This document shows, one piece after another, positions 506 to 56,486 of a DNA stretch of 64,000 nucleotides; positions within the stretch are counted from its first letter, which is position 1; each line of letters opens with the position of its first letter. Position numbers and translations under genes: made by a program. The stretch covers positions 1-64,000 of IMG/VR virus record IMGVR_UViG_3300036845_000456; one strand, given 5' to 3'. Source of the DNA: a virus. The notes under the pieces are model-generated. The model ran no database searches. It was not told the origin of the DNA and saw only the letters and a program-made list of their open reading frames with translations.

Positions 506-512
506 ACACCTG

Positions 513-560
513 CGTCGCCGTCATCGTCATCGGCCTCGCCCTCGTCTTCGTCAACGCCCA
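513..560 (+). repeat. Intergenic mini-array of 8 CGYC-NN hexamers
   Basis: cgtcgc cgtcat cgtcat cggcct cgccct cgtctt cgtcaa cgccca, between the stop at 505 and the ATG at 560. Confidence 0.75.
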
Positions 561-2272: not shown

Positions 2273-4645
2273 ATGGCGTTTGCTGCGTGGGATTGCGCGC
2301 ATGGTGATGCGCCATCAGTTCCGTTGCCAGTCGGCAACACGGTCGCCATTGCCCCGTCCGATGACAGCGTTGACTCGAACCGAGTCAGCGTCAGCGGCAA
2401 CGGCTACATCTACTCGCTCGGGCCCGGCCCGGTCGATGACGACGGCAATCCCTGGTTCTGCACGAAGCTAGTTGTTTTTACGCCGACGTCGCCGACGCAG
2501 CCGATCGTGCTGGTGCAGAGCGCGACGCTACAGATGCTCGGCGGCGTCAGCCGCACCATCAGCGTGCCGTGCATCTGCAAGTTTCACTGGGGCGGCGTCG
2601 CCTGGACTGAAGAACAGTACACCGATCTAACAAACGCCAGTGGCGGCGGTGGTGGTGGCGGAACAGCCGGACCGCCTGGACCGGTTGGGCCGCCCGGGCC
2701 CGCTGGTCCCGCCGGCCCGCAAGGCGCAACCGGACCCGCTGGGCCACAAGGGCCGAAGGGCGACACCGGCAACACAGGCGCCACGGGCTCGCAGGGACCG
2801 GCCGGCAGCACAGGCGCAGCGGGCCCTGCCGGCCCCGGCTATCAGGCGACCAGCGGGTCATCGGTACAGGTCACCAATGGCTCGAAGACGTTTGTTACAC
2901 AAGCCGGGCTCGCCTACACGGTCGGCGCTCGCGCGCGAGCCGCGTCGGGCGGCGCACCAACAAATTGGGTAGAGGGACAAGTCACCGCGTATAGCGGGAC
3001 ATCGCTGGTCATCAACGTCGATCTAACAAACGGCTCGGGCACGTTTGCTGATTGGCAGATTAACCTCGCCGGCCAACAGGGCGCGCAAGGAACGCAAGGG
3101 CCAGCCGGCAGCACCGGGGCAACAGGTCAAGGCGTGCCCACGGGCGGCACCACCGGCCAAGTCCTGACCAAGAACTCGGCCACCAATTATGATTCGAGTT
3201 GGCAAGCTCCAACAGGAGGCACTGGTACCACCACGCCAGCCGATGCGTTTACCGCAACACTAAGTGCGGATCAGACTGGCATTGCTGCATCTACTTGGAC
3301 GAAAATTAATTTCAACACGGTGGGACTAAACCAGAATGGCAAATGGGATGCGACACATCTGCGCTGGGTGCCTTCGGCTGGGCAGATTCAAATAGAAGCG
3401 CAGCTTTCTTATTCTAATATCGCTACTACTGGTCAGAATGTTTATGCTGCGATTTACAAAAATGGAGTAATGTTGAGGACTGGGGTTATTTATGACCTTC
3501 CTTCTAATAGTGGCTTTCCGGTTGTTGTTGTTGTTGATAACGCTAATGGCACTGATTACTACGAATGCTATGGGTACTGCACTGCCGTTAGCACGATAAG
3601 TTCGGTTGCTACTCTTACTTTCTTCCAAGGCTTTGCCATTGCTCCAGCCGGTCCGGCGTCTACTGTTCCTGGTCCTGCTGGTCCCGGTTATCTGGGAACC
3701 AGCACAACGAATGTGCCGATTGCGACTGGTCCCGTTACAGTCACCACGCAAGCCGGACTTGCCTATCAGGTTGGAGCAAGGACACGGTTATCCGCAGATG
3801 CATCGAACTGGATGGAAGGAGTCATCACCGCATATAGCGGGACAAGTCTAACCGTTAATGTGGACTACACGAGCGCGATGGCGGCGAGTTCGCCAAACCC
3901 GGTCATTCCTGGCTCTCTCTTTGGATTGACACTGGCGAATGATGCAACGACGCCAGCTACGGTTCTCGACATTGCTCCAGGAGGTGCCACGTCAGACGAC
4001 AATCTGACAGCGATGGTTTTGTCAGCAACTGGATTTAAGAAGAACTGCAATGCCGCATGGGTCGTCGGGTCTGGCAATGGCGCGCTCGATAGCGGTTCAG
4101 CACTCGCGAACAATACTTGGTATCATGTATTTCAAATTGAACGCGTTGATACTTACGTTGTTGATGTACTGATCTCGCAAAGTTTGACCGCACCGATACT
4201 TCCAACGAACTACACGAAGAAGCGGCGCATCGGTTCATTTCAAACAGGTGGCAGCGCAGCGATCATTCCATTTCTTCAATCTGGTGATCAGTTCCTTTTT
4301 ACGACGACACCAACAGCTTATGACACAGCACTGAATTATTCAGCCAATGTCTCTACTTTAGTCGCAGTTAACACACCACCGGGAGTGCGAACAGTCGCTT
4401 TGATACATGCAACGAACCAGACTACTGCTGGACAAAATGTATCAGTGCGAACTCCAGATATTGCTAGCCCCAGTGCTGTCTACTTCAACGTTCCTCCGGT
4501 ATCTACGACAGGAGCTTCTTACAACTACGTTGATTTGCAGGTCCTAACAAATCTTAGCTCTCAAGTCGCCGTTTATTGTGGTAGCGCCGTCACCGGAGGC
4601 TTCAAGATGGTGGCGTACGGATGGATTGACTCTCGGGGCAAGTAA
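2273..4645 (+). CDS. Modular fibre/appendage protein 1 (collagen Gly-X-Y, repeated beta modules, C1q-like module)
   Basis: Gly-X-Y run; TQAGLAY.VGAR...[11 protein letters not shown] module twice; modules shared with ORFs at 4645, 5715 and 38833. Confidence 0.75.
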
Positions 4646-5712
4646 TGCCGAGTTCTTGGAACATTGATATTGCTGGCCAACTTGGCCAGCCTGGAGGACC
4701 ACCGGGCGCTCCAGGGTCTGTTGGTCCTACCGGCCCTGTAGGTCCAGGCTATCAAGCAACCAGCACGACCAATCTACCGCTGGCGCTTGGGCCGATCACC
4801 ATCGCGACGCAAGCGGGTTTGGCCTACACGGTCGGTGCACGGGTGCGGCTGGCATCAAACAGTGCACCGGGTCAATGGATGGAGGGACCGGTCACCGCCT
4901 ACAGCGGCACATCGCTGTCGCTGAATATCGATCTGCTCAGCACCGGTATCATGGTTGCTCAGTACGTGACACTGCCGAATTATCTCGGTGGCCTCACGTT
5001 ATCGAACGACGCGACCAGTCCGAACACGGTGCTTGATATTGCGACCGGTTGTGCCACGTCTGACGACAACACGACCACGATGCCGCTGGTGGCGGCGAAC
5101 TTCACCAAGAACTGCAACGCGGCATGGGCAGTCGGATCAGGCAACGGCGCTCTTGATACCGGAAGCGCGCTAGTAGCAAACGCGTGGTATCACGTGTTTC
5201 TGATAACTCGCACGGATACCGGCGTTGTTGATGTGCTGATCTCGACCAGCGTGTCAGCACCGACCCTGCCGACAAACTACACAAAGCGGAGGCGCATCGG
5301 CACAATTGCAACTAATGCTTCTGCACAAATTATTGCATTCACTCAATTTGGTGATCAGTTCCTTTGGACGACGGTTATCAATAATTATTCCAATGTCGGC
5401 GTTTCCCAGACACAGTCGCAACTGACGTTGTCAGTGCCACCCGGGATCAAGGTGATCGCAATATTTGGTGCGTGGTTTTATCCAAATGTAAATTCCACCG
5501 TGCTGTTTCAATCTCCCGATGTAACCAGTGGGCTGGCAGTCGGTAGTAATACCAACATCTCTATATGGGGAACAGCAGCCGGGCCGTTGGTTGGCTTTGA
5601 GTGTCAGGTTCGCACCAACACGTCACAGCAGATCAACATGGTTGCTCTCTCTACCACTACGAACGGGTTATACATAAACACTAGAGGCTGGATCGATCAT
5701 CGTGGAAAGTAG
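4645..5712 (+). CDS. Modular fibre/appendage protein 2
   Basis: Paralogous to the C-terminal half of 2273-4645 ([33 protein letters not shown] end); TAATG coupling. Confidence 0.75.
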   Translation: MPSSWNIDIAGQLGQPGGPPGAPGSVGPTGPVGPGYQATSTTNLPLALGPITIATQAGLAYTVGARVRLASNSAPGQWMEGPVTAYSGTSLSLNIDLLSTGIMVAQYVTLPNYLGGLTLSNDATSPNTVLDIATGCATSDDNTTTMPLVAANFTKNCNAAWAVGSGNGALDTGSALVANAWYHVFLITRTDTGVVDVLISTSVSAPTLPTNYTKRRRIGTIATNASAQIIAFTQFGDQFLWTTVINNYSNVGVSQTQSQLTLSVPPGIKVIAIFGAWFYPNVNSTVLFQSPDVTSGLAVGSNTNISIWGTAAGPLVGFECQVRTNTSQQINMVALSTTTNGLYINTRGWIDHRGK

Positions 5713-7782: not shown

Positions 7783-10146
7783 ATGAGCGACCGCCGCGCC
7801 AAGTGGCTCGAACTGAAGGCGCGCGCGCTGGCGGCCATCAATAAGTTCGACCCGGACGAGCCGCGCGATCCGAGCGGCAAGTGGACGGACGGCGGCGGTG
7901 ATGATGGCGATGGGGCGGCGGAAGATGCCGCTGCTGTTCCCGGATTGCCGGACACGATCAAGATTCACGATCCTGGGCTCAACGCAGCAATCGAGCGCGG
8001 CGTATGGGATATCACCGCCAAGCCGCGCGCTTACAGCAACGACAAGCCGGGTGATGCATACGATCTAACAGTTCGCGCAAAGCAAACAGCCGACACGCGG
8101 ACCTACAAGCGGCGTGCCGATGATAAAGTTGAGCGTCTCTACAATCCCAAGCTTGCGGACTTGGTTGTTGAGGACAAGGGCCAACCGTATGAATGGACGC
8201 GTGCGAAACTGAAGCCGGAATTTGAAAAAGATATTGTTCCGCTTGCGGATAAGGATGTGATCTATCGCGGAATGTCCGGTGAGGAATACGAGGCAATCCA
8301 AAAAACCGGAAAGGTCACGTCGCTCGGCAACTACAATCTGGAAGGTCAGGAGGGTCTAACATACTGGACTACTGATACATCGACGGCGGAAGCTTATGCC
8401 AATGGTTTTGCGCCGTGGTCATTCAAACCAACATTTGAGAAACCCGCGTACATAGTTGCCGCGAAACGGCCGGAGTCGAAGGACGTCAGCAATATTCAAG
8501 GCACGGGCGAAAATGAAGTAGGTGTCTCACGTCCGATCAAAAAATCAGAGATTGTCGCCGTCTGGCGCGGCGACGCTTACGACAACACGCCGGGCCAAGT
8601 TGATCTTGTTCGCATGGGTTATAGCGGGGACGACTATCGAACCGGATCAGCCAGCCACACGAGCACATCAGTTGCATGGTCAAAAGTGCCAGAGACGGAG
8701 CGCAAGGGTTTCGACCCGGACGAGCCGCGCGACGACGCTGGCAAGTGGACCGCTGGCGGCGGCGATGGTGGCGGCGGCGACGACAGCAAACCGGCACAAG
8801 GCGAGTTGTTCCCCGAACTGCCGCCGCTGCCGCCGGGCAAGGGCAAGAACAAGCTTGACGACTTCGCCAAGGATCAAGTGACGCTGGCGAGCGATGTGCG
8901 CAATGACAAGGAGAAGGCCGACAAGTTTCTGGAGCACTGGAACGAAAACGTTCGCGAAGCGCCCGCCGAATTCAAAAAAGAATTCCTCGGCGGAATGCCC
9001 GCGACCATGACGATCAAAAGCAACGACAATGGCGATGTATGGACGCTGACCGGCAAGTTGCAGGATGCCGATGGCGCCTCGATCGGCGAATACACGCGCA
9101 CGATTGATTTCGCTGAAAACCGAGCAGAGAGCGACTACTTCAAGCTCAACAAAACCGGTGGCGGCCTCGGCAAACAGATGCTCGCAGCCAACGTCGCCAT
9201 GTATCAAAAGCTCGGCCTCAGTGAAGTGGAAGTGCATGCCAACATCGACGTCGGCGGCTACGCCTGGGCTAAATACGGCTACGTGCCGACCGACGAGAGT
9301 TGGCGCAATCTCAGCGGCAGCATCAACGACAAGATCGATGAACTCGCGGGCGGCGGCGGCGGTTACGAGCCGAGTAGCTGGGAGGAAATGAGCGAGGATC
9401 AGCAAGACAGTGTTTTCAACGCCTGGGCGCGCGCCAGCGAAGACGAGTTTTACGAGAGCGAAGTCGAGAATTGGCGCGAGAGTGGTGGTGATCTCGCGCA
9501 AGCCAAGCAAAACTTGGCGGATACGTTTCTAGCATCGAGCACGTGGGCGCGTAATGCGCTGGAAGGGCACACGATCACGGTCGGTGAGGGCGATAATGAA
9601 AAAGCCGTCAAGGTCGCGTCACTGATCTCGGTCGATACGTTGTTGGAGAATACGACGGTTGATTTCAAAGACCGACGCGGCGACGGCAACGAAGACCCGG
9701 ACATTACGATTGACGATCAGACAACGTCGGAATTGACCGACGATCAGCGCGAGCAAGTTGAAAGCATCTTAGTCGAAGGCTTCAATAAGCAAGCGGAAAG
9801 CGATGCCTCCGACGTTGAGCCGCCGCCACACTTTCACGACAACATTCGCGATTCACAAAGCGAATACTGGTCGAGCATGCGCGACCGCGACAAGTTTCGC
9901 TGGGCCAGCGACAATGGCGAGCTACCTGAAGAAACAAGCGGCAGCGGCGAGATCGATGAAGACGCCGCGCAAGAGCTACGCGAATTAGCCGACGATTCCG
10001 ATCCCAAGGCGCTATGGGCAATTGCCGACAGCGAGCACGGCAAGGATGTGTTGTTGAATAGTGATTGGGTCGGTGTTCTCGATTTACATGATTCAGAAAC
10101 GATGGCGCGGTTCAATGCCTACGTCAACAAAAAGCCCAAAGCATAA
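7783..10146 (+). CDS. Multidomain (polyvalent-type) protein: FDPDEPRD..GKWT motif x2, ADP-ribosyltransferase-like and GNAT-like domains
   Basis: IYRGMS..E / YWTTD / ENEV spacing suggests an ART fold; GGGLGKQML...VHANIDVGGYAWAKYGY resembles GNAT motifs; located just before the head genes. Confidence 0.55.
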   Translation: MSDRRAKWLELKARALAAINKFDPDEPRDPSGKWTDGGGDDGDGAAEDAAAVPGLPDTIKIHDPGLNAAIERGVWDITAKPRAYSNDKPGDAYDLTVRAKQTADTRTYKRRADDKVERLYNPKLADLVVEDKGQPYEWTRAKLKPEFEKDIVPLADKDVIYRGMSGEEYEAIQKTGKVTSLGNYNLEGQEGLTYWTTDTSTAEAYANGFAPWSFKPTFEKPAYIVAAKRPESKDVSNIQGTGENEVGVSRPIKKSEIVAVWRGDAYDNTPGQVDLVRMGYSGDDYRTGSASHTSTSVAWSKVPETERKGFDPDEPRDDAGKWTAGGGDGGGGDDSKPAQGELFPELPPLPPGKGKNKLDDFAKDQVTLASDVRNDKEKADKFLEHWNENVREAPAEFKKEFLGGMPATMTIKSNDNGDVWTLTGKLQDADGASIGEYTRTIDFAENRAESDYFKLNKTGGGLGKQMLAANVAMYQKLGLSEVEVHANIDVGGYAWAKYGYVPTDESWRNLSGSINDKIDELAGGGGGYEPSSWEEMSEDQQDSVFNAWARASEDEFYESEVENWRESGGDLAQAKQNLADTFLASSTWARNALEGHTITVGEGDNEKAVKVASLISVDTLLENTTVDFKDRRGDGNEDPDITIDDQTTSELTDDQREQVESILVEGFNKQAESDASDVEPPPHFHDNIRDSQSEYWSSMRDRDKFRWASDNGELPEETSGSGEIDEDAAQELRELADDSDPKALWAIADSEHGKDVLLNSDWVGVLDLHDSETMARFNAYVNKKPKA

Positions 10147-47809: not shown

Positions 47810-48706
47810 CTAAGACATGAACCTGGAGACATCAGCCAAGATTTCCTCGGCTGACTTCTGCACGACGGCGCGAACGTCATCGTTGTTGCGGAGAACCGGC
47901 GCTTCCTCCGCGCAAAGTTCGTGCTTGATCCGCTCGGTGATCGCGGTCAGCGCCGGATCATCTTGCAGATTGAAGGCTGGCAACAAGTCGGCAAGCTCGC
48001 GTACGTTGGCGACCAGCGAGTCGGTGAAGAACTTGCGGCCTTCGCCTTCGCCGTTGGTCTTGTACTCGCCGAGCTTCTTGGCCATGTGCCCGACCACCTT
48101 GGTGATCTGGTCAACGGTGTCGCGCGTCGAGCGAACCTCCGCTTGCTCGGACGCCGCCGTGATCTCGGCGCGGATGTCGGCAACCGTGTCGGCATCCAGC
48201 ACGTCGGACCGGAAGTCGTCCGCCTCGGGCAGCGGCATGAAGGTCAAGTCGAGCTTGAACTTCGTGCGGATTTCATCGGCGCTCGGGTAGTCTTCGGCCT
48301 TCCACAAGCCGTTGAGTCTCTGCTTGGCTTCCTCCACGAATATCGGATAGTCGCGGCAGAAGTCGTCGGCAGCCGTATGAAAGTCCCGTTTGATCTCGCG
48401 GAACTGGCCGGTGAACTTCGCGTACAGCACATTCGGCAGAATGCGCGGGCCTTCATCGGCCCACGGCTTGGTCATGCGATAGTGCAAGTCGCGCGCCCGG
48501 CTGACCAACTCGGTCAGGCGCTTCAGCCGCTCGGCGTTGAGCAGCAACTTGTTGTAACGCCCGGCGTCGGCGCTCGCATTGTGCGCCTGATTGACTTCGT
48601 CGGTCACCTTCTTATCGAGGCGACGCGCCGTCCACATCGAGATGTTGACGGCGACAAGCACCGCCTTCCGCGACAGCGGCGAGGCGATTTTGGTGTTGGC
48701 TAACAT
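47810..48706 (-). CDS. Helical partner protein of the AAA/VWA module (DUF3150-like)
   Basis: W.ARRLDK, T.PW...G.RILP, DYP..DEIR.KF, LPAFNL..DP.L. Confidence 0.6.
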   Translation of the reverse strand: MLANTKIASPLSRKAVLVAVNISMWTARRLDKKVTDEVNQAHNASADAGRYNKLLLNAERLKRLTELVSRARDLHYRMTKPWADEGPRILPNVLYAKFTGQFREIKRDFHTAADDFCRDYPIFVEEAKQRLNGLWKAEDYPSADEIRTKFKLDLTFMPLPEADDFRSDVLDADTVADIRAEITAASEQAEVRSTRDTVDQITKVVGHMAKKLGEYKTNGEGEGRKFFTDSLVANVRELADLLPAFNLQDDPALTAITERIKHELCAEEAPVLRNNDDVRAVVQKSAEEILADVSRFMS

Positions 48707-48761
48707 GGTAGGCTCTCCGTTTTGTTTGGTAGGCTGAAGGTTGAAGGGGAAACGGGACGGA

Positions 48762-50333
48762 CTAGGCGTCCGTCCCGACGTCGATCACGTCGCCCCAAGG
48801 CAACGTGCTTTTCAGGTAGGTCACGATGCGAGGGTCGCCATACGCCGCCCAAAGGACGGGCGCCTGCGGTTCCGGGCCAGGGTCGCCAATCTCAAGATCG
48901 GTCAGCGCCACGATCAGCGAGCAGTCTGGATCGTTTTCATCAATCCACTGGAACGCTGGTCGCAAGTCCGTGCCGCCACGGCCGACCGCCTTGAACTCGA
49001 CTTGGTCGCCGTCGAGATAGCGATCGACCGCATTGACCCGCGTGTCGTTGTAGACGACCACGGCTTCCGAGATGATGCCCGCGTCCATCGCCGCCTGAAC
49101 CTCGTTGCCGACTTTGTTCAGGACGTCGTCAGACATGGACAGCGACGTATCAACAAGAAACGCGACTTTGTTGATGCCGTCGCGCTGCGTGCCGGGCAGC
49201 ACGAACCCGGTGTGTGCGAACCGGCGATTCGGTCGGTTCCACGTTTCTGAGCGGCTGGCGCCCGCGTCGAAAAACTGGCGCATTTCTTCGCGCCAATCCT
49301 CGGTCGGCGTCTTGCGCCGCTCAAGTTCCGACTCCCAATGGCCGGGCAAGCAGCCGGCCTTCTTGGCGAGCGCAGCGGCTTGATGCGCGATGACGTCCCA
49401 ATGCGCGTCGAGATCGGGGGCCTGTTCAGCGGGCGCGTCGAGCACGCCACCGCAATCCCAAGCCTGTTGCTCATAGCCGGGGCGCGGCGTAGCATTGCCC
49501 TCCCCGTCAGCGTCTGCGTCCTCGCCCACGTCCTCGCCGACGTCAGCGCCGTCGCCTTCGCCTTCGTTAGTGCCGCCGTCCTCGTCACCGTCGTTGCCCT
49601 CGTCGCCGTCTTCGTTTTCGTCAACGTCGCCGTCACCGCCAGCGCCATCGGCACCGTCGTCGGCATCGCCGTCGTCAACGTCGCCGCCGTCGGCATCGTC
49701 CGCGTCACTGTCTGCGTCACCGTCAGCGTTTGCGTCAGCGGCTTCGTCTTCGTCACCGGCATCGCCGTCGTCACCGTCAGCGTCATCGGCAACGTCGTCG
49801 TCAGCGTCTCCGTCTTCGTTGCTGCCAGCGTCATCGCCATCGTCTGCGTCCACGGCATCGTCTTCGTCACCGCCAGCGTCATCGGCAGCGTCTTCTTGTT
49901 GCTGCTGTTGCTGTTCCTCGATTTCCAAGACGCGGTAGATGTCTTCGGTCGCCATGCCGGCAAACTCGGGACGGTTCAGCACCCAATCGGGGAGCTTGAA
50001 CCCTTCCGCGAGAATGTCAGGGTTGATCGAATAATCGCACGCCTTGTTCCAACGCAGCGGATCGCGCCCACGGCGCCGCGTCGAATGGTGGCGGGCATCG
50101 TGTTCGCTTTCGTGAACTTGGATGCCTTCCAGGAACTCTTGCGACAACTCGCAAACGAATTGCGGGTTGTAGTAGTGTTTGATCGAGTCGGTGGCCATGC
50201 GTGGAATTGACCAGCATGGCACCGGCTCGACGTTCGCGACCAGCACGCCATAAAACTTGCGTGCTTGAATGATGGCCGCGCGCGCCTTCATCACCTTGTC
50301 TTTGGCGACGCGCTCCATTTCGAGGCGGTTCAT
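48762..50333 (-). CDS. Putative metallopeptidase (HExxH) plus VWA-like domain protein with an acidic linker
   Basis: MATD, HESEH, WN.ACDY.IN; VDTSLSM MIDAS-like motif; GRGGTDLRP; TDL. Confidence 0.85.
   Translation of the reverse strand: MNRLEMERVAKDKVMKARAAIIQARKFYGVLVANVEPVPCWSIPRMATDSIKHYYNPQFVCELSQEFLEGIQVHESEHDARHHSTRRRGRDPLRWNKACDYSINPDILAEGFKLPDWVLNRPEFAGMATEDIYRVLEIEEQQQQQQEDAADDAGGDEDDAVDADDGDDAGSNEDGDADDDVADDADGDDGDAGDEDEAADANADGDADSDADDADGGDVDDGDADDGADGAGGDGDVDENEDGDEGNDGDEDGGTNEGEGDGADVGEDVGEDADADGEGNATPRPGYEQQAWDCGGVLDAPAEQAPDLDAHWDVIAHQAAALAKKAGCLPGHWESELERRKTPTEDWREEMRQFFDAGASRSETWNRPNRRFAHTGFVLPGTQRDGINKVAFLVDTSLSMSDDVLNKVGNEVQAAMDAGIISEAVVVYNDTRVNAVDRYLDGDQVEFKAVGRGGTDLRPAFQWIDENDPDCSLIVALTDLEIGDPGPEPQAPVLWAAYGDPRIVTYLKSTLPWGDVIDVGTDA
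49505..49894 (+). repeat. Array of 65 in-register CGYC-NN hexamers (antisense to the VWA gene linker)
   Basis: Parsed by hand: 390 nt with no register slip, e.g. cgtcag cgtctg cgtcct cgccca ... cggcag cgtctt. Confidence 0.85.
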
Positions 50334-50352
50334 TTCTGACTCCGGGTTTGTT

Positions 50353-51384
50353 TTACTGGACAGTCACGTCCGAATTTTCGACCGCCCATTTGCTGTAGGC
50401 GGCGACGTTGGCCAGCTTGTCATCGCGCGACACCGCGTCGGTCACCGTGAGAACTTCGAATTCACGCGGCAGCCGCTTGGCGTAGGCGATCACGTTCGGG
50501 AATGTCTTCCGGTCAGCAAGTCTGGCGATTGCCGTGCACACGGCGTAACGCTCGCTCGGCTCGCTCGGCACTTTGGCCGTTGCCGGGCTGGCCAAGATAT
50601 CGTCAATGTTTGTCAGCGACTGATACATCGCCACAAACGCTTCCATCTCGGACGCCACGGTCTTACCGACCATTGCGGTGAACGCGCGCAAGCGGCGCGC
50701 GGGTGGCTGTTTGATGTAGGGCCCGCAGCGATAGATCGTGCGCGGGTTGGCCGACGCGTTCTGATCGCCGTCGGCGTCGCGGTACAAGCAATCCGGCCGA
50801 AACCGGATGAACGCGACAAGCTCGGGCGCCAAGTTGGTCGCCTTGGCGTGGGCAATCCACGACGGCACGTCCACAATCATCGTGTAGTGGGCGAAGCGGC
50901 GCCGCAGCGGGACCGGCATCTGAATGACGGCGCGCGAGTCCTTGCTGCGGTTGCCCGCCGCCAGGATCACGCAATTGTCGGGCAGCGTGTAGTCGCCGAC
51001 GCGGCGATCGAGCACGAGTTGCATCATGACGGACATCATTTGCATCGTGCCGGTGTTGATCTCGTCAATGAACAACAGCGTCGGGCCGTCGCTGCCGTCA
51101 GACTTCGGCAGTTCCTTCGGCGCCAGCCACACCGTCGTGCCGCTGGCGAGATCGGGCACGGGCAAGCCGCGCACGTCCACGCTTTCGCGGATGTTGGTGT
51201 GGAAGGGGATCAACTTACTGGCCATCTTTTGCGCAATCTGATGCGCAAGTTCGGACTTGCCGATGCCGCTCGCGCCCCACAACATGACGGGCTGGCCTTC
51301 GAGCAGGTGCATGATGATTTGATCGACCGCGTCGAGCGCGGTGATCGCGTTCTCGACTTCGAGGTTAATGTCGTTGGTAGGCAT
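50353..51384 (-). CDS. MoxR-like AAA+ ATPase
   Basis: Walker A GASGIGKS, Walker B LLFIDE, AAGN sensor, PLRRRF arginine finger. Confidence 0.9.
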   Translation of the reverse strand: MPTNDINLEVENAITALDAVDQIIMHLLEGQPVMLWGASGIGKSELAHQIAQKMASKLIPFHTNIRESVDVRGLPVPDLASGTTVWLAPKELPKSDGSDGPTLLFIDEINTGTMQMMSVMMQLVLDRRVGDYTLPDNCVILAAGNRSKDSRAVIQMPVPLRRRFAHYTMIVDVPSWIAHAKATNLAPELVAFIRFRPDCLYRDADGDQNASANPRTIYRCGPYIKQPPARRLRAFTAMVGKTVASEMEAFVAMYQSLTNIDDILASPATAKVPSEPSERYAVCTAIARLADRKTFPNVIAYAKRLPREFEVLTVTDAVSRDDKLANVAAYSKWAVENSDVTVQ

Positions 51385-54112: not shown

Positions 54113-54535
54113 ATGGGGATGGATACCGGTTATCTGATTGATCCGAGCTTGCAGCGGGTCAGCTTGATCGAGCTTGAAACGCCAGTGGTGGCCACCATCG
54201 AGCGGTTGATCGGCGACAGCTACGGCATCGATCATGCGACGATCAGCGATGTCGGCGACATGATCTGGGTCGCGGGCGGGAGCTTGCTGGCGCAGAAGCC
54301 GGTCTATGCGTTTCGGTTGCCGGTGCAGCGCGATCCGTTTGCGGGCAAAGCGATCATCATCGGCGGCGATGACCAGCACAAACCGATCATTCCGATCGAC
54401 GTGGTGAAACAGGACATCGAATGGCTCGGGCTGATCGTGCCGACCGTCACCGTCATCAACGAAGAAACTGAATTGTTCGGCCGGAAAGCAATCCGGCATC
54501 GCGCCGTCGTCACTTACGAAAGGCCCAAGAAATGA
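54113..54535 (+). CDS. Hypothetical protein
   Basis: YLIDP...FAGKAIIIG; coupled to the next ORF. Confidence 0.6.
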   Translation: MGMDTGYLIDPSLQRVSLIELETPVVATIERLIGDSYGIDHATISDVGDMIWVAGGSLLAQKPVYAFRLPVQRDPFAGKAIIIGGDDQHKPIIPIDVVKQDIEWLGLIVPTVTVINEETELFGRKAIRHRAVVTYERPKK

Positions 54536-54762
54536 GCACTACTGAGATTGAGCGCCCGCACGTGCAGACTATCGATGATGCCGATCTGGTCTTGCTCGGC
54601 ATGCTGGTCGATGCCCACGGCTTGCCGGAAGTGCTATGGGGACTGGCGCGTGTTTGCTCGGATCGCGCGGAAGCCATCGCCAAGGACGACGCACACCGGG
54701 CCAATGAGTGGATGTCGCATTCGGTGCAATTAGATGATCTCGCTGCCGAGATCGGAGAATGA
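54532..54762 (+). CDS. Hypothetical protein
   Basis: LVDAHGL..VL..LA.VC...AE. Confidence 0.6.
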   Translation: MSTTEIERPHVQTIDDADLVLLGMLVDAHGLPEVLWGLARVCSDRAEAIAKDDAHRANEWMSHSVQLDDLAAEIGE

Positions 54763-55186
54763 ATTGCGCGACGTGTTGATCATCGCGCCGCTGGCGTTCG
54801 GCGTCGGATTCTTTATCGGGGATTCCTGGCAAGACTCTGCGCCGGTCGCGGTGTCCAGTGGCGGCCTCACGATCGTGCAGCGGTTGGCGCCAACGCCATC
54901 GTCAACGCCACCGCCATCGCCGACGCCCACGTCAACGTCTACGCCTTCGATCTCGGCCTCGCCCACGCCGTCGCCAGCGTCAACGTCTCTGTCTGCGGCC
55001 ACGGCTACGTCATCGCCTCCGTCAACGTCCACGTCAACGCCTTCGCCTTCGCCATCGCCAGCGTCCTCGCCTTCGTCTGCGGCAGCGTCCTCGCCTTCGT
55101 CAACGCGCAATATCTGCTCGCCCGGGTGGCGCGAGAATTTCTATCGCCACGGAGTTCTGCACTGGCGGTGTCGCTATGGCCGATGA
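54734..55186 (+). CDS. Membrane-anchored protein whose S/T/P linker is encoded by a hexamer array
   Basis: Hydrophobic N-terminus, S/T/P tract, C-terminal IC.PGW...HWRCR; start may be TTG at 54764. Confidence 0.5.
   Translation: MISLPRSENELRDVLIIAPLAFGVGFFIGDSWQDSAPVAVSSGGLTIVQRLAPTPSSTPPPSPTPTSTSTPSISASPTPSPASTSLSAATATSSPPSTSTSTPSPSPSPASSPSSAAASSPSSTRNICSPGWRENFYRHGVLHWRCRYGR
54888..55103 (+). repeat. Array of 36 CGYC-NN hexamers
   Basis: cgccaa cgccat cgtcaa cgccac ... cgtcct cgcctt cgtcaa, 216 nt in register. Confidence 0.9.
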
Positions 55187-55370
55187 TCAATGGACCGCGC
55201 AAGACAAGTTGGCCTGCATCGAGCGCGAATTGCGCTACCGGCTGCGCGTCTATCCGCGCCGGGTGGCCGAAGGCAAAATGACAGAACAGCAAATGCGGCG
55301 CGAGATTTCCATCATGGAAGCAATCGTCGCCGATCTGCGGGCCAATGCTGAGAGGGACCGGTTGATATGA
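55176..55370 (+). CDS. Small phage hypothetical protein
   Basis: KLACIEREL.YR.RVYPRRVAEGKM...REI..MEAI. Confidence 0.7.
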   Translation: MADDQWTAQDKLACIERELRYRLRVYPRRVAEGKMTEQQMRREISIMEAIVADLRANAERDRLI

Positions 55371-55502
55371 CGGATCAGGAAACGGAAACGGGATACGGGC
55401 TGACGGTCGGCTTTGATCCGCTGTTGCGCAGCTTGCGCCGCCATTTTCTCAAACCACGCTACGACATTCCTGATAAGACAACCGCGCGCGCCATCAAAAC
55501 TT

Positions 55503-55808
55503 CGCCGACGTCCTCGTCAGCGTCTACGCCGACGGCCTCGTCATCGTCATCGCCCACGTCAACGCTCTCGCCACCGCCCCTGCCTTCGCCAACGTCGTCG
55601 CCATCGTCACCGCCCTCGCCAGCGCCAACGTCTTCGCCCTCGGTGCGTCCGTGATCCAGCATCTACGGCATCGACTATGTCCTCGTTACCGTCATCGTCT
55701 CCGTCAATGCCCGCGCTAGAGCCGACGCCACCGCCTACGCCGACGCCAACGCCCTCGTCATCGCCGACGCACCGTCAACGCCTTCGCCGACGTCTTCGCC
55801 AACGTTCT
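55503..55808 (+). repeat. Array of about 48 CGYC-NN hexamers directly upstream of the RAMP gene (candidate ncRNA)
   Basis: 23 units at 55503-55640, a short break, 18 units at 55660-55767, one 5-nt unit, 6 units at 55773-55808; ends 21 nt before the ATG. Confidence 0.9.
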
Positions 55809-55829: not shown

Positions 55830-56486
55830 ATGCAGCGCGCCTACCAAATCGCATTCATCAAAGGCTACATCGCGCATCCGTACTGGCCGCAGCGCGAGCG
55901 GCTGATCAACATCCAGAAGGAGTCCGGGACCAAGCGCGTGCGCTCGGAGGAAAAGCGCGTCAAGGTCTTGCGCGACTATCTGGCCACCAAAAACATGAGC
56001 ATGGCCGATTACGAAGCGCTTGAGGAAGAAGCCGATCGCCAGTTCTATACGGCGGCCGATCTCGACAATGCCGACGGCCACGACACGACCGAGATTGTGA
56101 TCCCGGCGCATCAGATATACGGCATGGCGGCGCAAGCTTGCGGTCTGGCCTCAAGTTCGATCCGCATTGCCCGCGCCGAAAATCTGCGCACGGTCCTGAC
56201 CGTGTCCGACATATTCACCGGCAAGCACAAAGCAGACGGCGTATGGGAGCGTTTCGTCGTCGTCACCGCTGGCGCCGGCAACAAGCTGAGCAATCAAAGA
56301 GCGCTGCGCAGCAACGAGTATGTTGGTCCGTTTCAGGCGACATTTGAAGTGAAGTTCAGCGAGGAAGTCATCGATCCGAAAAAGGTTGACGATTTTCTCG
56401 GCTTCTGTGGCCGCGAGATCGGCGTTGGCGCCAGCCGCAAGCTCGGTTGGGGCCGCTTCGAGATCGGCAAGGCCAAAGCCAAATGA
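55830..56486 (+). CDS. Solitary RAMP-superfamily (Cas7/Csm3-like) protein
   Basis: IVIPAHQIYG corresponds to the RAMP IPGSS.KG motif; C-terminal Gly-rich loop IGVGASRKLGWGRFEI (G.G..R..G.GRF); 218 aa; RBS gggag. Confidence 0.75.
   Translation: MQRAYQIAFIKGYIAHPYWPQRERLINIQKESGTKRVRSEEKRVKVLRDYLATKNMSMADYEALEEEADRQFYTAADLDNADGHDTTEIVIPAHQIYGMAAQACGLASSSIRIARAENLRTVLTVSDIFTGKHKADGVWERFVVVTAGAGNKLSNQRALRSNEYVGPFQATFEVKFSEEVIDPKKVDDFLGFCGREIGVGASRKLGWGRFEIGKAKAK

Follow-up and report, generated by a model that had tools for sequence, protein, structure and literature searches.

Hexanucleotide arrays beside a stand-alone RAMP gene in phages point to a probable VIPR-like RNA-guided system with a 6-nt repeat

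In the virus record IMGVR_UViG_3300036845_000456, from a soil phage, a gene for a stand-alone RAMP protein is preceded by tracts in which four fixed bases (CGYC) alternate with two variable ones (NN), and the question that this locus raises is what the variable dinucleotides are for. The record, 81 kb long and rated 100% complete, contains capsid, portal and tail-sheath genes and has a GC content of 59.7%; the window analyzed here is its first 64,000 nucleotides (Table 1), and positions beyond it carry the prefix C1. A preliminary description, made from the letters alone, had proposed that the dinucleotides bear information, that they are AT-rich and never GG, and that they may match AT-rich targets. 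Its NN strings and counts proved exact on recounting (A+T at 54/72 NN bases with no all-G/C dinucleotide in array 1, and at 31/46 in array 2). Neighboring units do mostly differ, identical neighbors being found at 2/35 positions in array 1 and 1/22 in array 2, and the consensus CGYCNN cannot form a plus-strand stop codon in any frame. Triplet-shuffled versions of the genome (n = 20) yielded no array of five or more units. The absence of GG holds for this genome (0/212 hexamer units in the eight array segments counted), where a GG rate of 2.4%, that of the family, gives a P of about 0.006, a value weakened by the post hoc choice of one dinucleotide among 16. Across the family, GG occupies 69 of 2866 units (198 homologous arrays) and is common in locus L107, so it is a bias and not a rule.

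Table 1. Arrays, genes and open reading frames of the hexamer locus and of solo arrays, in window coordinates
Feature	Positions	Strand	Description
Short solo CGYC/NN array	507..560	+	8-9 units, between two genes
DUF2201 gene	48762-50333	-	Host of the antisense 65-unit array
Solo array	49505..49894	+	65 CGYC/NN units; antisense in acidic linker of DUF2201 gene
ORF	54734..55186	+	150 aa from first start (true start uncertain); putative
Array 1	54888..55103	+	36 CGYC/NN units in phase (28 of them perfect); putative guide RNA tract
ORF	55176..55370	+	64 aa, phrog_19667, between arrays 1 and 2
ORF	55367..55654	+	95 aa; second half is array 2 in P/S/T frame
Array 2	55503..55640	+	23 in-phase CGYC/NN units
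Array 3	55690..55767	+	13 units; two degenerate units ahead, from 55678
Array 4	55773..55802	+	5 units; ends 27 nt before the RAMP start codon
Stand-alone RAMP gene	55830..56486	+	218 aa; RRM core, thumb, G-loop; putative Vipr-like effector

Array 1 lies within the Pro/Ser/Thr frame of the 150-aa ORF, which comprises a hydrophobic N-terminal segment, the array-derived P/S/T linker and a short Cys/Trp C-terminus; a shorter, linker-less homologue of this ORF was sought, and none was found. The 64-aa ORF also adjoins arrays in L007, L008, L009 and L059 and is not a family-wide partner. In array 2, unit 11 reads CGCT after an AA unit and, as far as the letters go, seems to resemble the module handle of the CGRC clade described below. 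The phase slips by 5 nt at 55768-55772, right after array 3, and array 4 runs into the GGAG ribosome-binding site of the RAMP gene, with no structured 3' tail. The largest solo array in the window is hosted by an operon (47810-51384, minus strand) with a DUF3150-like gene, the DUF2201 metallopeptidase/VWA gene and an AAA ATPase gene; L326, a homologue of the DUF2201 gene, has an ordinary acidic linker without the array phase. Beyond the window, about 61 CGYC/NN units at C1 69786-70154 belong to the N-terminal linker of a 643-aa gene, in frame and read as P/S/T; the homologue L328 of this gene has a short ordinary linker. A 60-nt tandem repeat of 2.7 copies is found at 1612-1773.

The known systems closest in anatomy are the VIPR systems, which pair a Vipr protein with a vrRNA. 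In the accessible part of the survey that describes them, which covers 667 systems, all seven types (I to VII) have pentanucleotide motifs (10.64898/2026.04.26.720920), and the accessible part of the structural account has one Vipr protomer on each 5-nt repeat, with the G-loop and thumb reading GGY (10.64898/2026.04.26.720927). The RAMP of the hexamer locus had no Pfam match and no significant match in a PDB sequence search, and PADLOC gave weak G-loop matches only (E 0.009-0.03). Foldseek comparison of its model (pLDDT 96, from a 116-sequence alignment) with the PDB gave type VII Cas7 and Csm3 as the best matches; against Csm3, VIA gave a Z of 12.1 and an rmsd of 2.8 over 148 residues, and Vipr structures were absent among the fold matches in this PDB library, which runs to April 2026. 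Against viral RAMPs in BFVD, the model reached a TM of 0.53-0.58. Three BFVD proteins were the only matches at E<=0.001, and they were identical for the hexamer RAMP and for the pentamer-linked Vipr of the same genome; phrog_4652 was matched by both proteins as well (E 1e-4 for the hexamer-linked one and E 2e-14 for the pentamer-linked one). Compared directly, the two gave an hhalign probability of 23% with 18% identity, on a branch of about 10 changes per column. The model places the RAMP nearest to viral Vipr-like proteins, with a predicted Cas7/Csm3 fold. No Cas1 was found in the complete phage record and no CRISPR repeat-spacer array near the RAMP gene in a tandem-repeat scan. Homologues numbered 288 by word search and formed 194 clusters at 50% identity by profile, and there was no match in cultured phage (50,697) or plasmid (72,556) records. 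The pentamer-linked protein belongs to a second, canonical-looking VIPR locus at C1 75591-78631 (L231, minus strand, beyond the window), with a 288-aa RAMP (C1 77765-78631, minus strand), a partner of 178 aa (phrog_15946) and GGY/NN arrays that extend over about 1.6 kb. A pentamer and a hexamer locus coexist in this phage genome.

To evaluate the link between gene and arrays, we used 94 loci, of which 87 were left after exclusion of 7 duplicates or partial matches. A CGYC/NN array adjoins the RAMP gene on the same strand in 74 of the 87 and on the opposite strand in none; the 13 other loci mostly have CGRC/NN, and a distant clade has TGRC/NN. A motif-free test, whose 99 loci still include some near-identical ones, found the best period to be 6 in 93 loci and 7 in one, with none in five. 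The 94 loci scanned had no GGY/NN array beside a hexamer-family RAMP, while the pentamer-linked Vipr family had GGY/NN arrays at 63/80 loci and diverse CGNC hexamer arrays at 0/80. A lone Vipr-like RAMP is tied to co-oriented YGNC/NN arrays across about 100 loci. The three scaffold dialects (CGYC/NN, CGRC/NN and TGRC/NN) cluster on the protein tree, where the dialect labels of 49 rows, in 4 groups, change 4 times, compared with a mean of 19.8 after shuffling. When six pentamer Viprs were used for rooting, the root fell among CGRC lineages, but its branch is too long for this placement to be trusted. Residues F72, V145 and the G-loop W207 differ between the CGYC and CGRC clades, although the link of residue to scaffold is not strict because in L105 the array next to a CGRC-clade protein consists of CGCC units. 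That array (L105:285-428) has A-rich NN of low diversity and could represent a scaffold switch or a captured array.

The arrays are often divided into modules. In the CGRC and TGRC clades, an in-phase handle, GAC-NN-(A/C)GCT, splits them into modules of which 37/47 have 8-11 units, and this short handle is all that stands in place of a tail. CGYC lineages show 1-nt slips (L107), AT-rich spacers (L083, L101, L054, L069) or continuous tracts; the CGCT handle is not enriched across this clade, and the 49 upstream CGYC arrays listed share no 3' tail. In L107, where the gene starts at 8001, about 14 short modules are spread from about 360 nt upstream of that start to 1300 nt downstream of it. Most of them end with a CG unit and a single additional base, which shifts the phase by one per module, and the layout is reminiscent of the staggered vrRNA arrays in the VIPR paper. 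Lineage-specific spacers of 20-40 nt repeat between the modules of L083, L101, L054, L069 and L090 and are candidate processing handles. In most homologous upstream arrays, the distance from the array end to a start codon is 8-41 nt. No family-wide neighbor, vap-like or other, was found among 1750 ORFs within about 4 kb (many contigs being short), Rfam gave one chance match (E 0.76), and no promoter-like site beyond chance expectation was found inside the locus. Two further contigs differ in content: L095, a short one, has a RAMP homologue, no hexamer array and, by eye, tRNA-like sequences about 250-150 nt upstream, and L329 (IMGVR_UViG_2936135026_000001) has TGAC/TCAC hexamer modules at 4600-5000 in an element of 39% GC.

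The fixed and variable positions behave very differently. Information per position is 1.0-1.9 bits in the core and 0.05-0.06 bits at NN (2806 units), and the number of distinct NN per 9 units is 6.5 in 128 RAMP-linked arrays, compared with 2.4 in the 117 generic viral CGYCNN runs listed. Such generic runs occur at a minimum of 122 loci in viral contigs (42 of the 122 listed are shorter than 800 nt), and among those listed the highest entropy was found in the two contigs with a RAMP match. L109, L114, L115, L148, L154, L169 and others have low-diversity CGCC/NN runs, mostly of GC, TA and GA; these phages, with Ala-Tyr-Asp-type repeats, show no RAMP in the fetched flanks. We also compared NN strings between pairs whose RAMP genes are 93.5-99.4% identical. 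In L008/L025 (gene 98.4% identical), 5/17 units align against 4.7 after shuffling, and in L099/L100 (99.4% identical) 10/32 against 10.3; the adjacent strings of L008/L009, L009/L025, L083/L101 and L340/L345 also align no better than shuffled ones. The string was partly or wholly kept in L033/L034 (11/15), L084/L338 (11/18 and 9/15) and L075/L080 (13/13). Contigs from four DNA runs gave partial, cross-matching cover and no usable array alleles. The four fixed bases are constrained at the nucleotide level and change with the protein, and NN is hypervariable. The proposal that NN bears information thus gains indirect support from the diversity, the hypervariability and the tie to a Vipr-like RAMP.

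Part of the NN composition seems to be related to RNA folding. Array 1 folds at -51.3 kcal/mol in the sense strand and -88.8 in the antisense strand (uniform NN, -78.6 +- 10.2), and array 2 at -26.2 and -51.0 kcal/mol, respectively (uniform NN, -44.9 +- 10.2). Arrays were less stable than their uniform-NN versions in 107/132 homologous cases, and the palindrome-forming combination CGTC+GA is depleted (16 vs 27.8 +- 3.8). The GGY/NN pentamer guides, with their G-rich core, show the mirror-image bias, being C-poor at the first position with 48% A+T. The suggestion that avoidance of G keeps the C-rich core from pairing therefore stands as a bias and fails as a ban. That the array RNAs are unstructured was confirmed only in part: they fold more weakly than with uniform NN, but 45-52% of bases are paired in the MFE structures of three arrays of the locus, which are not wholly unstructured. 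Selection for an open sense-strand RNA probably explains much of the G-poor, AT-rich bias; G-poverty fits avoidance of self-pairing, and an AT-rich target is also possible.

Taken as a whole, the locus probably encodes a phage-borne VIPR-like RNA-guided system whose repeat measures 6 nt where that of VIPR measures 5 nt. By analogy with VIPR, the arrays would be transcribed together with the operon, and RAMP protomers would polymerize on the sense RNA, one per 6-nt unit, each burying the four fixed bases and presenting NN. Modules of about 8-12 units might then serve as guides for binding to a gapped nucleic-acid target, on the same analogy most likely the dsDNA of competing phages or satellites, which would be silenced without cutting because there is no nuclease partner. 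An RNA with G-poor, A-rich NN would stay open while the filament assembles, arrays could occupy gene linkers because their scaffold has no stop codons, and the target step (skip) and class may differ from the 1-nt skip of VIPR on coding DNA.

Searches for such targets gave no enrichment over shuffles with 225 arrays (skips 0-4, four reading modes, 1.7 Mb), with 170 arrays (skips 0-5, 5.3 Mb; the few perfect matches all came from one low-complexity GC run) or with 53 modules and windows (steps 2-6, 5.6 Mb), and one exact 9-unit pattern from array 2 with a 1-nt skip had 0 matches in viral contigs. The proposed match to AT-rich targets is thus unsupported, with no excess over shuffles at skips 0-5 in an underpowered pool. 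These negatives are weak because the pool is small and the pentamer control was barely positive in it (9 vs 4.6 +- 1.8 at skip 1 and 8 vs 4.6 +- 1.5). Applied to pentamer guides, a codon-phase test gave z values of 5.1 and 2.7 at step 3 and <=1.5 at steps 2 and 4. For 317 CGYC blocks, with arbitrary borders, the values were 1.9 and 1.7, and for the few modules available (47) they were -2.9 and 0.2; neither blocks nor modules showed a signal at steps 2 or 4, where simulations for the blocks gave z 4.4-12.1. As the codon-phase signal is weak or absent, NN does not look like a VIPR-type copy of coding DNA, and the result speaks against coding DNA being read by a plain VIPR code. Two pentamer guides gave single matches. 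The guide at L251:12588-12647, from another phage, matches the genome with the hexamer locus at 19/20 bases with a 1-nt skip, maybe by chance; the matched site, at window positions ~54525-54555 (minus strand), spans the junction of two genes shortly upstream of that locus. The guide at L251:11396-11445 matches L247 at ~10212 (minus strand) over 19/20 bases (18/18 in a stretch of nine units), a site within another phage's vipr gene, like the reported VIPR-versus-VIPR targeting.

A bolder version, which we regard as possible but doubtful, is a separate RAMP-guided branch, in which a protomer with the 6-nt Cas7 step would read two bases, guides would reside in coding linkers and dialects would keep co-resident systems apart, making it a living step between the 5-nt Vipr and 6-nt Cas7 filaments. 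Its target geometry or class would be other than that of VIPR: non-coding DNA, RNA or another skip.

The failure to find targets and a codon phase is also what a scaffold without any target would give. The RAMP would then coat CGYC-periodic RNA (including its own leader and the mRNAs of host genes) for regulation or as a decoy filament, and NN would be free filler that reflects mutation, the shuffling of units and selection against folding. The position of array 4 at the RAMP ribosome-binding site, the similar placement of homologous arrays ahead of start codons, the arrays inside genes, the irrelevance of NN order to folding (74/132) and block duplications within arrays at lags 8-10 all agree with this. 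Filler, however, needs neither complete NN turnover beside 96-99% identical genes nor many different capped modules in each locus, and we consider this explanation unlikely.

Solo copies in unrelated genes of the same genome, and entire blocks gained or lost between the near-identical phages L014/L051 and L075/L080, could instead suggest a DNA-level element, that is, binding or recombination sites spread by gene conversion and linked to the RAMP by DNA binding or co-transfer. Such an origin is improbable, given the strict co-orientation (74 vs 0), a sense strand that folds more weakly than the antisense strand and a RAMP fold that is RNA-binding.

More improbable still is that the arrays are low-complexity coding sequence, in which amino-acid usage would determine NN and the products would be (Ala/Val)-X peptides or P/S/T linkers. 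One plus frame does have a normal-looking GC3 (0.95-0.97), and three of the genome's arrays fall in ORF frames that would encode P/S/T or D/G linkers. In the normal-GC3 frame, however, fourfold codons end in G at 4/1110 compared with 2840/7779 in RAMP genes, and Ala/Val codons at 0/2659 compared with 909/2481; array calling favors perfect units, yet non-synonymous third-base changes reach 4.3%. Amino-acid usage, which the preliminary description had named as the competing explanation of NN composition, failed when tested, the wobble bases being fixed. Of the two results that the description had required together for its refutation, a lack of enrichment was thus obtained, in an underpowered pool, and an account of NN by amino-acid usage was not. 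Moreover, arrays 1-4 have no start codon in that frame, which is broken between neighboring arrays in 32/73 gaps, and upstream ATGs are not enriched (46/105 vs 41% background) and spread over all three frames. The peptide reading is largely refuted. The idea of a translated leader was dropped on the same ATG evidence. Least probable of all is an ordinary slippage microsatellite, since, common as CGYCNN runs are in viral contigs, the generic ones listed are far less diverse, neighbor identity is not raised in the arrays (210 vs 238.9 +- 14.7) and the arrays are linked to one gene family.

The probable VIPR-like system matters in several respects. VIPR is the proposed ancestor of Class 1 CRISPR, and a Vipr protomer spans 5 nt of RNA where Cas7 spans 6; a natural RAMP family with a 6-nt RNA register makes this change of register testable. 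The three dialects tied to protein clades offer a route to mapping how RAMPs read fixed bases, and dialect-clade pairs might yield orthogonal programmable binders of about 210 aa. As the scaffold has no stop codon, hexamer arrays are probably annotated as low-complexity ORFs, and they may be missed by intergenic or 5-mer searches.

Class 1 backbone RAMPs (Csm3/Cas7) advance along RNA by 6 nt per subunit, and the VIPR work, in its accessible part, cites the flip of every sixth base of this backbone. The hexamer RAMP has the fold of these type III and VII proteins (Z 10-12), but the locus differs from Class 1 CRISPR in lacking a repeat-spacer array and cas1, and four of six positions are fixed, so contiguous pairing is impossible. 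With VIPR it shares a phage-borne stand-alone RAMP of about 200 aa, again with neither cas1 nor CRISPR array. In both, fixed bases alternate with hypervariable NN in tandem repeats co-oriented with the gene, a locus contains several modules of guide size, and solo arrays occur away from the gene, as the accessible text on solo vrRNAs also describes (10.64898/2026.10.15.759431). The hexamer locus differs in its 6-nt period with four fixed bases (CGYC, CGRC, TGRC), in having no conserved structured 3' tail (a feature of type II vrRNA) and no vap gene found, in arrays that often lie in gene linkers, in a codon-phase signal that is weak or absent and in a protein only remotely related. CGGC/NN and TGGC/NN can be read directly as GGY/NN plus one pyrimidine per unit. 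The non-canonical VIPR-like arrays (GAC/NN, CAC/NN, WGT/NN and TGH/NN) likewise have altered fixed bases beside Vipr-like folds, and the GAC core is common to both, but those in the accessible part of their description are all 5-mers; the periods named there are 5, 7, 8, 10, 18 and 60-79, without a 6-nt class, and 66 outlying clusters are partly described (10.64898/2026.10.21.760802). A literature search for a hexamer VIPR, with thin coverage of subscription journals, found nothing relevant. Since the anatomy is VIPR-like but the pentamer, tail and vap features are missing, we regard the locus as a variant and not as a member of VIPR. Hexamer VIPR-like arrays may be new, the VIPR systems described in the accessible texts being pentamers only.
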